DNA of 64,000 nucleotides from a virus (taxonomy: Duplodnaviria > Caudoviricetes): the IMG/VR virus record IMGVR_UViG_3300044614_001923, one strand, 5' to 3'. The position numbers and the translations under genes were made by a program. Of this stretch, positions 13,243 to 18,602 are shown in pieces. Position 1 is the stretch's first letter; every line of letters starts with the position of its first letter. The notes under the pieces were generated by a model that was not told the DNA's origin, did not search any database, and saw only the letters and a program-made list of their open reading frames with translations.

Positions 13243-14484
13243 TCAACGCTTGATCACGGAAACTGCCGCCTCACCGCGCTCAAAAATGGTATCCACCACT
13301 GCCTGAACCTTCTTAGCGGTGCTGATCCCGACCTTGTTGAAAACGGGGACGCACACCAGACCAAAGGATTTGGAATACTGATCCAGGTTGCCAGGTTGGA
13401 TTGAACCATCACGAAGACCCTTTGCGTCATCATGATGCAACCTGATCACACGCCCAATAGTCTGACTGATGCCAATGTAATCCATAGAGCGCATGAAGAC
13501 CACCGCCTCAAGACCAGACACGTTGATACCTTCACTGAGGATACTGTGGTGAAGAACAACAAACTTCTTGTCGTTATCCTTACCCCAAGCACTTAGAGTG
13601 TCAAAGAAGACTTCACGGTTGACCTTTTGACCATCAATCACACCACCAGTCTTAGCACTGATATACATGTAGGAATACCCACGATCAGCAAGTTGCTGAC
13701 AGAAATCAGACTCAGAGACAAGACTGACAATTTGCTTGACTGCCTTAGCACAGATCAGGATCTTACCAACACCATGCTCATCAATGGTTTCCAGCAGATT
13801 CTCAGAATCAACCTCAGCAACTTGCATACCCTTAGGAACAAGGGGAAGTTGCTTGACTGCAACCTTAGGAGGAACAATGAAACCACCCTGCACAAGTTCA
13901 GGAGCAGGAACTTTACAGATCACTTGACCATAGACAGCAGCATCATTCATGCCAGGTTTGAAAACAGTGGCAGAATGCTTAGGAGTAGCAGTGAAGAAAT
14001 AGCAGCGGTCAGCAGCAGAAGAGAAATGCTCGGTGGCAGGGAAGAAATGACGTTGAACAGAGTTATGTGCCTCATCAAAGTAAATGGTATCAACATGAAT
14101 GTCTGCTGCCTGCAGACGGTTCAGAGAATGATAGGTCGTAAAGATCAGTTTGTGAGCAGAAGAATTGCTCTCAACCCACTGACGGATCACATAAGGGCGA
14201 GTAGAAGACTCGTGATGAGTCTCGCCACTGTGAACGTGGAAAACATGAGCATTGGTAACATGCTCAAGAAACTCACTAGACAGTTGCTCAGCGAGCAGAA
14301 TGCGCGGAGCAACAACTACAATAGTTTTAGGAGTCTCGGACTCAAGCAGGCGTAGCGTATCAACAATCATCTTGAGAGTCTTGCCACCGCCAGTGGGCAC
14401 GATGATCTGACCCTTACGGTGCTGCAGCATAGCAGCGGTGCCACGTTCTTGATGGGGGCGGAGGAGAGGAATCACAGCGGTCAT
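13243..14484 (-). CDS. superfamily 2 DExH helicase (ResIII-like)
   Basis: LRPHQ Q-motif, VPTGGGKT Walker A, DEAH, TAT motif III, LSEGINV, QTIGRVIR; likely start MTAVIP. Confidence 0.9.
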   Translation of the reverse strand: MTAVIPLLRPHQERGTAAMLQHRKGQIIVPTGGGKTLKMIVDTLRLLESETPKTIVVVAPRILLAEQLSSEFLEHVTNAHVFHVHSGETHHESSTRPYVIRQWVESNSSAHKLIFTTYHSLNRLQAADIHVDTIYFDEAHNSVQRHFFPATEHFSSAADRCYFFTATPKHSATVFKPGMNDAAVYGQVICKVPAPELVQGGFIVPPKVAVKQLPLVPKGMQVAEVDSENLLETIDEHGVGKILICAKAVKQIVSLVSESDFCQQLADRGYSYMYISAKTGGVIDGQKVNREVFFDTLSAWGKDNDKKFVVLHHSILSEGINVSGLEAVVFMRSMDYIGISQTIGRVIRLHHDDAKGLRDGSIQPGNLDQYSKSFGLVCVPVFNKVGISTAKKVQAVVDTIFERGEAAVSVIKR

Positions 14485-14499
14485 CAATTCAATAAAGTT

Positions 14500-14557
14500 A
14501 TTATACGGCAAAAAGACCCCCCATAGAGGGTCTATGTGACACTAGAAGAACTGGTCC
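14500..14557 (-). promoter_or_regulatory. early-type promoter element: GTGACAC-N8-CTGGTCC, 30 nt, TATAAT
   Basis: repeated motif with conserved spacing upstream of the helicase. Confidence 0.75.
14510..14533 (-). terminator. intrinsic terminator AGACCC-loop-GGGTCT-TTTT inside the promoter spacer
   Basis: GC hairpin plus U tract just past the stop of the small methyltransferase. Confidence 0.65.
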
Positions 14558-14955
14558 AGTGTCACCTCAGCAGGTGTTCCGTCAAAGCGGTAATGATAAG
14601 TTAGAGCATCTGCTTTTACATAGTGAGGATGAGTTATTGAAACTCCCAGACGCTCACATAGTTCTTTATGATTATCTTCTTGAAATTCTATCACATAAAG
14701 CATGTTATCCAAAACATGCTGTTCATCATGATATTGACATAAAAGTTCTTTGAGTCTGATAGAAAAATTGCCAGATCCAGCACAAAGATCCAAAAATTTA
14801 GCATTAGGATCTTTTAGTTTATCCAATGGAATCTGATCAAGCATATCATTGACAAGATCTGGAGGAGTAAAAACCTCTCCAGTATTGTCAATTCTATCTT
14901 TTGTTCTTTCAATATCAGACCCAATGTTTTTTACCTTAGTTTGCTTTGTTGACAT
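14542..14955 (-). CDS. truncated DNA amino-methyltransferase, SAM-binding half only (motifs X-I-II-III)
   Basis: GEVFTPPDLVNDML, KFLDLCAGSGNF, VIEFQEDN, VKADAL; ends without an NPPY/DPPY motif; likely start MSTKQ. Confidence 0.8.
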   Translation of the reverse strand: MSTKQTKVKNIGSDIERTKDRIDNTGEVFTPPDLVNDMLDQIPLDKLKDPNAKFLDLCAGSGNFSIRLKELLCQYHDEQHVLDNMLYVIEFQEDNHKELCERLGVSITHPHYVKADALTYHYRFDGTPAEVTLDQFF

Positions 14956-17900
14956 AGTAAGGATTGGGGATGACATTTAACATAGAGCAAACAGTTCGGA
15001 AACCACCACTCAACTGACATGCCTCGCGGTAGGTGTTTGCCTCCTCAGAGTTGAGAAACTCCATAATAGCATGACCCTCCTCCTCACTGTCAACTAGTAT
15101 GTACATACTATTATCTGTCACACCATACTTACCATCATCATAGTAGGGGTAAAAGTTACCACCTTCCTTAAAGATGACTTTCTTTTGCTGATAGTATGGT
15201 TGAGGTTTCTTATCATAAACAAACTCAGGTTCTCCGTTAGGAGTAGTTTTGTTTACATTTACATAGCAACCTTCAAAGTAAACAGTAGGATCAAACTTAT
15301 TGGGATTTTTCTTATCTTTGAAACGTGGAGCGCGTCCAACAGCAGCATTCAGACGGGGAATAGATGCATCAGTATTCAGATACTTTTGAAGTAGATCTAG
15401 ACTGTGATTTGGTACAAAAGGATAATCACGGAAGTCTACATCAACCCACTCTTCAGATGCTTGAAAGCGGACTTTAGTAGGACCAGTGCGCTCCTCTTTG
15501 CAGTATGAATACCAATCATAAGAAGTGTTAGCATTGAAAACTTTAACACCTTCCTTAGAAGAATGAATAGAAAGTTTTTCTACCTGAACATCACGCATCA
15601 GATAGTGACGCTTATTGGTAGGTTTCCGTAGACCAGGAGGATGCACCATGATACCATAACCACCCTCTTTCAGCAGATTGTAACCAAGTTCCGCAAAATC
15701 TCCATAAGCAGACTTACCTGTTTTGTGGGAATTGATTGAATACGGAGGATTTGAAATTACGCCATCAAATTGGATTTTACCCATCAGACCCTCCAGGTCA
15801 GAGACCACGTTGATTGCACTATCCACACATTCTACCCTAAACAGGTGAGTTTGGCAAGACTCCCAGACCCAGATATTCTGGGCAGGGACGCCACACTTCT
15901 CAATCAGATAGGCAACTTGCGACCCAGAAGGATCACAAATCACAAGAATTTTGTGGTGAGGTTGAACATAATCTCCGATCATTTCAGAGAACATGTCATA
16001 AGGAATGCTGCGATGTTCTTTTGATGAGACTGAAAGTGTATCCAGAGTATCTGCGAAGGAATTCTTCATAGCAAGGGCAATATCTGTCGATACCTGAGAG
16101 ATACGATGCATTAGACGATTGTAGTTCAGAAGACCGTCATCAAGGCAACGTTCAATAATATTCTGATTATCACCAGTAGAACTGATGTAATAATCAGACT
16201 TCAGAACGTTATCAACAGAATTTACATTTTTACCATTACGCATTTCATAAAGAATTGTCAGAGGAATTGCTTCCAAAATAGACTTAATGGATTCTTTTTT
16301 GCGACTGAGTTCTTTATTATGAGCAGCAGGAGATTTACCTTCTACTTTTGTATTTGTCTTACCATTTGCACCATTATCATTCACTTCAGCACTTTTTGCG
16401 AGGTCTGAAGTAGAAGATTTGAGATCCAAGTTCATCTCAAATTCATTCAGTTTCTCCATATCAATATGATACACCGCACTTGCGATCAAAGAACGTGTAT
16501 CAGCAATATCACATGCAGTGATCTGATTGATTTGATCTTGAGTCATATGAACAAACTTATCTGCCCACTCTGAAATTGCAACAAATTCAATTGACTGATA
16601 GTTCAAAAGTTCTGGATTACTATCGCAAGCAATAGAATAAGATAAACGAATAGATTCTAGACACTTTTGGGGGGAAAATTCAATCACATTGTAATCATGA
16701 TCACCCGACCCACCACGCGATGCACCTTGAATCCAAAACTCAGTAGATTTGCCATCAGAGCAATTAATAACCGTATCAATATCTTTGACAGTTACCCCAA
16801 GAACATTTGCCCAACGAGTAATAATCATAGTCTTAGTATTCTCAGCAACATGCTTGCGAATCATGTCCGCATCAACACCAGACTCACCGATTGCAACAAG
16901 AGGAGAATAGTCCTTAATATAGTCTGCAATCAGTACACATGCTTCTGCACTAGGCATCAGCAAATATGCATGTTGAGTATCATTTAGAAGGCGATCTTTT
17001 GGATTACGAATGTGACGCTGAGTAGAAAGATAGTTATGCACAAAGTCAATTACCAGACTCTCATGTTCAAACTTACCATCTTTAATAGAAAAGATGTTGT
17101 TCATTGCATCAGGCAAGTCACCAAAGATTTTACGATACTCTTGAGACTCATACTTTGCGAGGATTACATGCATTTTGCCACGATGAAAAACACCGCGCTG
17201 AACGTCAAGTTGCTCATCAAAGTATGTGTAAATGAAAGTGTTCTCTTGAGAGAAATCAGATGCTAGTTTGAAAGCAGTTCCAGACACATACATGCAAGGA
17301 ACGTTCTTTAACTTAGAACGAATCTCTTTCCACTGCTTAGCACCATATCCGATATGGCATTCATCATAACAAAGAAAATCTACTTGATGAATGTCTTGGA
17401 TTTTATTCACAAGACCCTGAATTGTAGACCAAAGAATAACTTGAATACCTTCAACTTGCGACCAGTATTCTAATTGTTCTTTCCAATTTTTATCAGCAAG
17501 ACAGATATATCTAAAGTGATCAAAGTCTATAAAGTTCTCAGAATCTTCTTTCCAAGATTGTTCTGGAGACTTGCTACGAGAAACAATCAAAGAAATCTTA
17601 AACTTGCGATCTAGAATGTGGGAAAGAACCATCACTGATTTACCTGCGCGACACTTTGCCCACAAAAGAAACTCACAATATTCCTTATTTGCTTTCTTAA
17701 TAAACTCCACTTGATAAGGACGAGGAGTAAACTTTACTTTCTCATCAAGAATTTTCCCATCAAGAGAAAACTGCTTACAGCACATATCTACAATAATTTC
17801 TTCAGTGTATGAGTGATCTCCACGAAAAGCAAAAATTTCTTTATGCTTTTTTGAATATGGAAGAGTCTTCAAAAAAGCATGGATATCGTGATCACGACCA

Positions 17901-18094
17901 TCAAAGTCTTTAAAGAAAGCAATAACTCTATAATCCCCATTACCATCAGGTGAAATTGCTTCAAGCATTGCCCTTGCTTTGGAGTGATCCCCCATAGAAA
18001 GACGACCATTCACAAGATCTTGTTCAGTCTCACCGCATCCGATAATCAGATGAGGCATTTCAAAGTTGGGAGTGATAAAGTAAATGTTTTTCAT
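14936..18094 (-). CDS. restriction-modification-like fusion: putative GIY-YIG/T5orf172-like nuclease + SF2 helicase + N6-adenine methyltransferase/TRD
   Basis: N-terminal IYFITP..MPHLIIG..ET..RL...DHDIH..L...EIF; PRPYQ, AKCRAGKS, DECH; C-terminal FDGVISNPPY. Confidence 0.8.
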   Translation of the reverse strand: MKNIYFITPNFEMPHLIIGCGETEQDLVNGRLSMGDHSKARAMLEAISPDGNGDYRVIAFFKDFDGRDHDIHAFLKTLPYSKKHKEIFAFRGDHSYTEEIIVDMCCKQFSLDGKILDEKVKFTPRPYQVEFIKKANKEYCEFLLWAKCRAGKSVMVLSHILDRKFKISLIVSRSKSPEQSWKEDSENFIDFDHFRYICLADKNWKEQLEYWSQVEGIQVILWSTIQGLVNKIQDIHQVDFLCYDECHIGYGAKQWKEIRSKLKNVPCMYVSGTAFKLASDFSQENTFIYTYFDEQLDVQRGVFHRGKMHVILAKYESQEYRKIFGDLPDAMNNIFSIKDGKFEHESLVIDFVHNYLSTQRHIRNPKDRLLNDTQHAYLLMPSAEACVLIADYIKDYSPLVAIGESGVDADMIRKHVAENTKTMIITRWANVLGVTVKDIDTVINCSDGKSTEFWIQGASRGGSGDHDYNVIEFSPQKCLESIRLSYSIACDSNPELLNYQSIEFVAISEWADKFVHMTQDQINQITACDIADTRSLIASAVYHIDMEKLNEFEMNLDLKSSTSDLAKSAEVNDNGANGKTNTKVEGKSPAAHNKELSRKKESIKSILEAIPLTILYEMRNGKNVNSVDNVLKSDYYISSTGDNQNIIERCLDDGLLNYNRLMHRISQVSTDIALAMKNSFADTLDTLSVSSKEHRSIPYDMFSEMIGDYVQPHHKILVICDPSGSQVAYLIEKCGVPAQNIWVWESCQTHLFRVECVDSAINVVSDLEGLMGKIQFDGVISNPPYSINSHKTGKSAYGDFAELGYNLLKEGGYGIMVHPPGLRKPTNKRHYLMRDVQVEKLSIHSSKEGVKVFNANTSYDWYSYCKEERTGPTKVRFQASEEWVDVDFRDYPFVPNHSLDLLQKYLNTDASIPRLNAAVGRAPRFKDKKNPNKFDPTVYFEGCYVNVNKTTPNGEPEFVYDKKPQPYYQQKKVIFKEGGNFYPYYDDGKYGVTDNSMYILVDSEEEGHAIMEFLNSEEANTYREACQLSGGFRTVCSMLNVIPNPYYVNKAN

Positions 18095-18131: not shown

Positions 18132-18161
18132 ATTATAAGGGAAATCTTAGGGGTGTGTCAA
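18132..18161 (-). promoter_or_regulatory. sigma70-like promoter TTGACA-N18-TATAAT for the RM-like gene
   Basis: consensus hexamers 38 nt upstream of ATG 18094. Confidence 0.75.
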
Positions 18162-18602
18162 GCGGTTTGGAAAAGAATACACAAAGTCATTTAAACCAAG
18201 ATATTCGATATACAAAAGTTCTTCCATTTGTCTTGCTTCAATTTCCCATGGTTGATTTTCATACTCAGTTTCAGTATAATCTATACCTCTCCAAAGACGT
18301 TTACCATGTTTGTCTTTAAGATTGCCCATAACATGCTGATAGACATGCCATAGTTCATGAAACAAAGTTTTGAGATAGTGATCTGAATTCATACGATTAT
18401 GAATCTCAATTTCAAACTCTCTAGGACGGTAATTGCAATCCATAACCGTACACCATCCATAAACTCCTTCACGCATCAATCCGCGATGATTGATTTCTAT
18501 CTCAAGTTTATGTCTTGGTAGATACTTTGCAATAAACCACTCTGTAGCGTTAATACAACGTTTCTTGCTATAGTTGCGTCCAGAGATATACAATGTAAGC
18601 AT
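18147..18602 (-). CDS. zinc metallopeptidase-like protein (HExxH, SprT-like)
   Basis: TLFHELWHVYQ and QPWEIEA. Confidence 0.75.
   Translation of the reverse strand: MLTLYISGRNYSKKRCINATEWFIAKYLPRHKLEIEINHRGLMREGVYGWCTVMDCNYRPREFEIEIHNRMNSDHYLKTLFHELWHVYQHVMGNLKDKHGKRLWRGIDYTETEYENQPWEIEARQMEELLYIEYLGLNDFVYSFPNRLTHP

Follow-up and report, generated by a model that had tools for sequence, protein, structure and literature searches.

What completes a DNA methyltransferase when its cofactor-binding motifs and its catalytic motif lie in two different genes? The question is raised by two overlapping open reading frames (ORFs) on the minus strand of the IMG/VR virus record IMGVR_UViG_3300044614_001923 (Duplodnaviria; Caudoviricetes), a 64,785-nucleotide (nt) fragment that is estimated to be ~26% complete. 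The stretch analyzed here (i.e., the window) is 64,000 nt long and covers most of that record. One of the ORFs encodes a 1052-amino acid protein that contains a superfamily 2 (SF2) helicase region and the catalytic motif NPPY, and the other encodes a 144-amino acid protein with the motifs for binding S-adenosylmethionine (SAM). Our sequence comparisons and structure models indicate that the locus probably encodes a two-chain N6-adenine DNA methyltransferase, in which the small subunit would provide the cofactor site and the C-terminal third of the large protein would provide catalysis and target recognition. From the same comparisons and models we infer how the two chains assemble physically, that the assembly is active and what role is played by a second N-terminal half that is part of the large protein itself (i.e., the cis N-half).

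The two genes and their motifs

The 1052-amino acid ORF (18094..14936), the 144-amino acid ORF (14976..14542) and a helicase gene ending at position 13243 are arranged head to tail on the minus strand. Translation and comparison of the large gene revealed, after its N-terminus, an SF2 helicase region (residues ~104-461; 16712..17785), a divergent Rossmann N-half (residues ~694-772; 15779..16015), a catalytic half with beta4, NPPY and motifs V-VIII (residues 773-900; 15395..15778) and a TaqI-like target-recognition domain (residues 901-1052 plus the stop codon; 14936..15394). The helicase region was delimited with phrog_16 and Pfam ResIII, the N-half by AlphaFold2 secondary structure, an alignment of N-halves and the ratio of nonsynonymous to synonymous substitution rates (dN/dS), the catalytic half by its sequence, Pfam Eco57I and BLASTP, and the recognition domain by an AlphaFold2 model and a weak match to TaqI_C. 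The small gene was delimited by its translation and a match to phrog_4376. The ORFs, their translations, NPPY and the motifs of the small protein were all found where the initial annotation had placed them.

The small protein contains GEVFTP (motif X; residues 33-38; 14880..14863), FLDLCAGSGNF (motif I; residues 61-71; 14796..14764), VIEFQEDNH (motif II; residues 95-103; 14694..14668) and VKADAL (motif III; residues 120-125; 14619..14602), all on the minus strand, lacks motif IV and has a conserved C-terminal tail that ends with LDQFF. Its residues 11-144 match positions 3-133 of the 134-position profile phrog_4376 (E 9.9e-53), which is a full-length family match, and the methyltransferase profiles of PADLOC also match it (E 3e-8 to 5e-7); NCBIfam yielded no match to the small protein and no meaningful match to the large one. 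In the PADLOC single-chain profile mad2, the small protein corresponds to positions 269-351 and residues 765-827 of the large protein to positions 346-405. Given this adjoining coverage, the small protein and residues 765-827 of the large protein are directly successive segments of a single methyltransferase. The AlphaFold2 model of the small protein, with a predicted local distance difference test (pLDDT) score of 80.6, consists of beta1, beta2 and beta3 plus helices, and superimposes on the N-terminal SAM-binding half of CamA (Z 11.8, root-mean-square deviation (rmsd) 2.6 Å, 112 aligned residues) as well as on those of BsaXI and MmeI (Z 10.0 and 8.4, respectively). Translation, family match and fold match thus bear out the earlier proposal that the small ORF holds motifs X, I, II and III in canonical form and ends before motif IV.

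A search limited to proteins of 79-252 amino acids and clustered at 90% identity recovered at least 576 sequence clusters of homologues of the small protein, nearly all of them 131-144 amino acids long. An alignment of 26 members (57-88% identical to the small protein of the window) has 31 invariant columns. The invariant residues include E34, V35, F36 and T37 in motif X, F61, D63, A66, G67 and G69 in motif I and E97 in motif II, and D123 in motif III is near-invariant. The dN/dS of the small protein is 0.085-0.15 versus its two closest relatives, values that, like all dN/dS values given below, are rough, as dS among the three closest genomes is 0.6-2.2 and near saturation. Lineages that share only ~20% identity in their catalytic halves still have small proteins that are 54-62% identical. 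By these comparisons the small subunit is the most conserved component of the system and is very unlikely to be a decaying fragment.

In the large protein, the motif IV stretch FDGVISNPPY occupies residues 776-785, and NPPY itself (residues 782-785; 15751..15740) fits the (N/D)PP(Y/F) form that motif IV, the catalytic loop following beta4, takes in the gamma class of DNA amino-methyltransferases. Profile searches placed phrog_22930 at residues 3-706 (E 2e-201), the phrog_16 DNA helicase profile at residues 104-461 (E 1e-13), Pfam ResIII at residues 122-273, Pfam Eco57I at residues 771-823 (26.1 bits, just above the cut-off of 25.3) and, weakly, Pfam TaqI_C at residues 960-1027. The AlphaFold2 model of residues 690-1052 (pLDDT 80.4, predicted template modeling score 0.76) resembles M.TaqI (2ih5_A; Z 20.4, rmsd 4.5 Å, 334 aligned residues within model residues 6-362), M.BseCI (Z 18.4), CamA (Z 18.3), LlaGI (5ffj_B; Z 13.7, rmsd 4.7 Å, 316 aligned) and LlaBIII (4xqk_A; Z 13.7, rmsd 4.7 Å, 314 aligned). 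In the predicted structure a Rossmann-like catalytic domain is followed by a C-terminal recognition domain, as in the gamma class, and by its predicted fold and its motifs the catalytic chain appears to be a TaqI/Eco57I-type gamma enzyme. NPPY and the matches to Eco57I and N6_Mtase point to adenine-N6 rather than cytosine-C5 chemistry. Neither protein matches PF01555 (Pfam N6_N4_Mtase) at E up to 1.

At the other end of the large protein, a Pfam search of residues 1-125 yielded nothing meaningful at E up to 10. An N-terminal nuclease (GIY-YIG or Mrr), as belongs to Type ISP restriction-modification enzymes, was looked for in this region, and no usable match was found even at that threshold.

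Catalytic partners and single-chain relatives

We surveyed 80 IMG/VR loci that hold a member of the small family. A catalytic partner adjoins the small gene or lies no more than two genes away in 75 of them, and the other five are cut by contig ends; the co-occurrence that a two-chain enzyme calls for was therefore found, and no homologue of the small gene without an NPPY partner turned up among the contigs with enough sequence. An ORF with motif IV is directly upstream of the small gene in 69 loci, usually overlapping it by 4-20 nt, and a methyltransferase lies within two genes in five loci, which have gene orders of the Bellamy and ACG-2014f types. NFPF replaces NPPY in a single partner, the helicase-methyltransferase of locus L059 (2739-6017), which may be an inactive or altered-chemistry variant; the small gene is still kept there. 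In the reverse direction, a search with the catalytic domain of the window recovered five viral contigs and the small gene is present in every one of them, a thin test given this low number. Among cultured phages, all of those matching the S-CAM7 methyltransferase recur among the matches to the small protein.

The partners differ in form. Helicase fusions of ~1050 amino acids like that of the window are found at ~20 loci, and separate methyltransferases of 331-474 amino acids with some N-terminal extension at ~22 loci. In another 27 partners, motif IV stands at the very start (NPPY at residues 8-12); eight of these are ~280 amino acids long and 19 are ~190 amino acids long, the latter including PSSM2_036 of P-SSM2. 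Stop codons just upstream exclude a longer reading of these 27 ORFs, and their upstream genes are unrelated. Judged from their sequences, they are without any cofactor-binding half and should not bind SAM on their own. One of the 27, P0125, falls within the clade of the window; it is 77% identical to the catalytic half of the window, and its contig is syntenic, with a zincin-like gene, the catalytic half and the small gene in this order, but is without the entire helicase and N-half. In the window, the zincin-like gene just upstream of the large gene (18147-18602, minus strand) encodes a 151-amino acid protein with an HExxH motif; its 47%-identical homologue in contig L009 (794-1234) adjoins a catalytic half without helicase and N-half, and synteny therefore brackets the presence or absence of ~770 codons. 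On the tree of catalytic cores the absence of a cis N-half is scattered, which requires at least seven changes, four of them forced by well-supported branches.

Single-chain relatives link the two proteins directly. P0156 (378 amino acids) has the canonical motif order; its residues 6-115 match the small protein (45% identity, E 1.4e-18) and its residues 112-360 match residues 775-1027 of the large protein (28% identity, E 1e-19, BLASTP). The latter alignment starts exactly at beta4 of the large protein, runs through the recognition domain and stays out of the cis N-half. A maximum-likelihood tree built from catalytic cores places P0156 and P0201 as the sister group of the clade of the window (support 98/91). 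Other relatives have the permuted order. ORF0215 of Aeromonas phage phiAS5 (417 amino acids) has NPPY at residue 11, a small-like domain at residues 274-371 and, at its C-terminus, the same FF tail as the small family. P0148 (399 amino acids) has NPPY at residue 8 and matches Eco57I positions 75-156 with residues 2-64 and N6_Mtase positions 20-118 with residues 271-373, which makes it an explicit circular permutation; P0212 is a further permuted single chain, with NPPY within residues 8-11. Given these natural fusions and the tree, the small protein and the catalytic half of the window are therefore two halves of one ancestral enzyme type.

A distant group of proteins (e.g., P0162 and P0186) has a small-like half followed by a long non-methyltransferase tail, and its genes stand beside catalytic-type ORFs. 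In P0162, P0185, P0186 and P0169 (loci L099, L100 and L101) the small-like half, with the motif EP(S/A)AGDGNF, contains an insertion and precedes a tail of 200-350 amino acids without methyltransferase motifs, and the genes overlap or neighbor catalytic-type ORFs. The uncultured jumbo phage LR756508.1 (L102; 275500-280500) encodes a complete methyltransferase (273 amino acids), an NPPY-start catalytic half (277 amino acids), a 256-amino acid protein and a small-like half of 191 amino acids with SAGIANF as motif I; one gene thus intervenes between the two halves.

The two chains were also modeled together. The complex of small and large proteins reached an ipSAE of 0.77, whereas the best of three controls scored 0.02. 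In the calibration of the tool this mark is reached by 58 of 80 solved complexes and by 2 of 110 mismatched pairs, counts that are only a rough guide here as custom alignments were supplied and SAM was included in the runs. Three runs agree in at least 90% of contacts, with a partner pLDDT of at least 83. The most confident contacts join residues 775-783 of the large protein (beta4 and motif IV) to residues 59-65 of the small protein (beta1 and motif I), and residues 799-807 contact the motif III region of the small protein; on the large protein the predicted interface comprises residues 772-787, 799-807 and 812-817. The predicted geometry is as expected if the small chain completes the Rossmann sheet, and the model supports binding between the two proteins. 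Completion in trans, which the initial annotation had put forward together with multimer modeling as a way to probe it, is thus well supported by gene adjacency, the 27 partners that start at motif IV, the single-chain relatives and the predicted complex.

On this basis we propose that residues ~773-1052 of the large protein would supply beta4, the NPPY loop, motifs V-VIII and the TaqI-like recognition domain, and that the small protein (137-144 amino acids) would supply motif X, the glycine loop, the ribose-binding Glu97 and the adenine-binding Asp123. Both genes would be co-transcribed and probably translationally coupled, with a hairpin 3' of the small gene ending the unit. Beta1 of the small protein would pair with beta4 of the large protein to complete a seven-stranded Rossmann-like sheet, and the assembled enzyme would methylate DNA adenines, presumably in phage DNA. 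The gene order (i.e., catalytic half, recognition domain and cofactor half) would then represent a circular permutation left as two chains, in which the cis N-half is possibly a placeholder or regulator that is displaced by the small subunit.

The cis N-half and alternative explanations

The stretches that had been read as degenerate motifs X, I and II of the large protein lie at ~16015..15851 and comprise residues 694-706 (HRSIPYDMFSEMI), 715-726 (KILVICDPSGSQ) and 741-748 (IWVWESCQ). AlphaFold2 predicts this block (pLDDT 67-92) as helix, beta1, helix, beta2, helix and beta3, in which a motif-X-like helix is followed by beta1 (residues 716-720) and DPSGSQ, beta2 (residues 741-744) and Glu745, and beta3 (residues 762-764) and Asp766. 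An alignment of the cis N-half from 34 loci revealed an IP..L...M helix, a hydrophobic beta1 followed by D-P/A-x-G, an acidic residue kept after beta2 and, in most cases, an Asp following beta3. Neither the GxG nor the aromatic residue of canonical motif I is present. The term degenerate therefore holds for motif I, which has no GxG, but the stretch forms a distinct, conserved motif rather than being the product of random decay. Comparison of the cis N-half with the alignment of the small family by hhalign gave a weak match (probability 2.8%, E 0.016) in the correct register.

The cis N-half has a history that differs from that of the catalytic part next to it. Compared with a clade of helicase-fused relatives (L021, L029, L033 and others), the window is 45-47% identical in the cis N-half, ~20% in the catalytic and recognition parts and 54-59% in the small protein. 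Compared with L013, it is 21% identical in the cis N-half, 64 and 62% in the catalytic and recognition parts, respectively, and 73% in the small protein. The nearest relatives of the helicase and cis N-half thus differ from those of the catalytic and recognition parts. By these identities the cis N-half is inherited with the helicase and not with the catalytic cassette, and the catalytic and recognition parts behave as a swappable cassette. It should be noted that, against L013, L021, L029 and L033, the modules of the large gene (14936-16015) are shuffled with a break near the beta3/beta4 boundary. Such shuffling suggests recombinational swapping of target specificity. A recent origin of the small gene by duplication of the cis N-half was also considered; it is disfavored by the low hhalign probability and by the way in which the cis half tracks the helicase.

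Several observations weigh against a two-chain enzyme. The methyltransferase domain of the large protein modeled alone is a complete M.TaqI-like fold in which the cis N-half takes up the canonical position (pLDDT 80, Z 20.4), and the site at which the small protein is modeled may therefore already be occupied. Asp721, Gly724, Glu745 and Asp766 are retained at cofactor-contact positions of the cis N-half, and its dN/dS of 0.13-0.31, likewise rough, points to purifying selection and is close to the value for the helicase. The score of the complex may in part be recall of single-chain methyltransferase folds, because together the two chains make up a fold for which many single-chain structures have been solved. 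The two structure predictions also disagree on which N-half lies beside beta4: the cis half in the monomer model and the small protein in the complex model. Given the purifying selection, the retained D-P/A-x-G and acidic residues, the confident canonical fold and the co-inheritance with the helicase, the earlier suggestion that this half of the large protein has simply decayed and been replaced is only partly right and is not supported in that form.

These observations could be accommodated if the large protein were a self-sufficient gamma-class methyltransferase that uses its cis N-half, and the small protein were redundant, a regulator or an alternative cofactor module that, for example, competes with the cis half and so tunes methylation against a helicase-linked activity. 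AlphaFold2 does build a complete TaqI-like fold from the large protein alone, and across divergent relatives the cis N-half keeps the acidic residue after beta1 and beta2, the loop glycine and the Asp after beta3, with a dN/dS well below neutral. The cis N-half has, however, been lost or was absent at least four to seven times, and the small gene was kept every time. In P0156, the closest canonical single-chain relative, the N-terminal part matches the small protein and not the cis half. The dN of the cis half (0.19-0.34) is the highest of all segments, compared with 0.07-0.10 for the catalytic half, and the complex model puts the small protein at beta4 even when the cis half is present. We therefore regard self-sufficiency of the large protein as unlikely, though it is the alternative that best withstands the evidence, and we infer that the cis N-half is a conserved, divergent Rossmann half of the helicase module and not the main cofactor site.

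The two N-halves may also compete for the one catalytic half. The cis half would hold the enzyme closed with poor cofactor binding, and the small protein, produced through coupled translation, would displace it and turn methylation on. This mechanism is doubtful and ranks below self-sufficiency. If true, the protein would be a helicase-methyltransferase with built-in two-state control of DNA modification, and the locus, with two N-halves to a single C-half, would represent a living intermediate on the way to circular permutation.

A different partner for the small protein, or none, is improbable. It would act as a SAM sensor, a sequestering protein or a subunit of the downstream helicase. That SF2 helicase (13243..14484, minus strand; Pfam ResIII at E 8.6e-20, DEAD and Helicase_C) recurs as a homologue immediately 3' of the small gene at most of the 80 loci, and in loci of the Bellamy and ACG-2014f types a putative nuclease or helicase is directly upstream of the small gene. 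However, with its beta1 edge exposed, half of a Rossmann fold is unlikely to be stable by itself, the single-chain proteins fuse the small-like domain to NPPY catalytic halves and not to helicases, and loci L008 and L012 have a catalytic half and a small gene without a helicase. The downstream helicase probably starts at the ATG at 14484, which agrees with the homologues better than the listed TTG start (14511); the latter falls within the T run of a hairpin. This GC-rich hairpin (AGACCC, loop and GGGTCT; 14533..14514) with its T run and a TATAAT (14505..14500), both read from the minus-strand sequence, sit between the stop codon of the small gene and the helicase gene. The large-small operon probably ends at the hairpin, and the TATAAT is probably the promoter of the next gene. 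A megablast search of the locus against phage records found a sole match, the helicase segment of S-SKS1.

Other neighbors of the small gene were noticed in related phages. Proteins of 187-200 amino acids are encoded next to the methyltransferase and small genes, or in the interval between the two, in L004 (5479-6081; ACG-2014f gp052) and L005 (4448-5011; Bellamy gene 87). They contain a D...(Q/K)xK-like pattern and give a weak hint of Pfam Mrr_cat (E 0.12), by which they may be nucleases; if they are, some of these phage clusters would be restriction-modification-like. A protein of 350-510 amino acids is encoded 3' of the small gene in P-SSM2 (PSSM2_038; L002 6514-7902) and, as homologues, in ~15 IMG/VR loci, with a weak match to the C-terminal winged-helix domain of DpnI (E 0.014).

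Programmed ribosomal frameshifting, which would join both ORFs into one permuted polypeptide, is very improbable. The end of the large gene and the start of the small gene overlap on the minus strand in different frames (14936..14976) by 41 nt, or by 20 nt if the small gene starts at its second in-frame ATG (14955), which would give 137 amino acids, the length of most homologues. Such an overlap of two same-strand ORFs, together with the existence of permuted single-chain relatives, would suit a frameshift. In the 80 related loci, however, the overlaps are mostly 4-20 nt (4, 8, 11, 14, 17 and 20 nt, and even a 2-nt gap) with variable frame offsets, and the small ORFs have their own ATG at the conserved N-terminus. 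Fusion by programmed frameshift is rejected on account of the differences in overlap length and frame among homologous loci, and the overlap probably reflects translational coupling. Least credible of all is that truncation of a methyltransferase gene left the small ORF behind as a non-functional remnant: the ORF does end where beta4 begins in full-length relatives, but its fixed length of 131-144 amino acids in 576 clusters, its 31 invariant columns with all cofactor-contact residues among them, its dN/dS of 0.085-0.15 and its conserved position and overlap with the partner gene are not those of a remnant.

Circular permutation and comparison with known systems

The alpha, beta and gamma classes of DNA amino-methyltransferases are defined by circular permutation, and the natural route of such permutation has so far been argued mostly from models and engineered enzymes. 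Permutation models for DNA methyltransferases were reportedly advanced by Jeltsch (1999) and Bujnicki (2002), and Peisajovich, Rockah and Tawfik (2006) are said to have found that rearrangements of M.HaeIII can pass through functional intermediates. The series of layouts in this phage family looks like a natural counterpart of these models and of the M.HaeIII intermediates: its stages stand side by side as a canonical single chain, a catalytic chain with N-half plus subunit, a catalytic chain without N-half plus subunit and a fused permuted chain. The split arrangement is common to hundreds of related phages and would be a natural example of an enzyme that is both split and circularly permuted. 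It is abundant in marine and freshwater cyanophages, where methylation of phage DNA bears on the evasion of host restriction. One conserved cofactor subunit serving cassettes that are only ~20% identical suggests a plug-in design for rapid change of target specificity. For annotation, the pipelines that label the small protein as hypothetical or "UbiE" and the catalytic halves without a cofactor site as "DNA methyltransferase" are incomplete in both cases.

Our literature search found natural split C5 enzymes and engineered permutants and no account of a split adenine enzyme of this kind, which is not proof that none exists. To our knowledge, no natural two-chain adenine-N6 DNA methyltransferase has been known before, and that of the window would be the first. 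Natural two-polypeptide DNA methyltransferases are known only in the C5 class, in which M.AquI and M.EcoHK31I are split near motifs VIII-IX or at motif IX (PMC3404938). Like these enzymes, the proteins of the window divide the motifs of one fold between adjacent or overlapping genes. Unlike the window, M.AquI and M.EcoHK31I are cytosine-C5 enzymes, are not split between cofactor and catalytic halves and have neither a permuted order nor a helicase fusion. The two-subunit methyltransferase of Stx phages, which consists of a whole methyltransferase and a nucleic-acid-binding subunit (PMC10810198), is a different thing from the split into two halves described here.

The large protein taken by itself resembles in its layout the Type ISP enzymes LlaGI and LlaBIII, in which an SF2 helicase, a gamma methyltransferase and a recognition domain are on one chain (residues 694-1052 for the latter two in the window); those enzymes, however, have no separate cofactor-binding subunit. 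It shares with the M.TaqI or Eco57I/N6_Mtase family (gamma; also CamA, M.BseCI and MmeI) NPPY and a predicted catalytic fold with C-terminal recognition domain. In M.TaqI/Eco57I-type enzymes, motifs X, I-III and IV-VIII follow in that order on one chain, whereas in the window the canonical motifs X and I-III belong to a separate chain whose gene follows the catalytic part, and the catalytic chain has in addition a divergent N-half that those enzymes do not have. Beta-class amino-methyltransferases have the order IV-VIII, recognition domain, X and I-III (PMC7544214), which is the order of modules along the DNA of the window (catalytic half at residues 773-900, recognition domain at 901-1052 and then the small gene); the window differs from them in matching Eco57I and N6_Mtase instead of PF01555 and in having two chains instead of one. 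In the single-chain relatives P0156, P0201, P0148, P0212 and phiAS5 ORF0215, both halves are homologous to the two pieces of the window, but there they are joined in one polypeptide without a helicase fusion.

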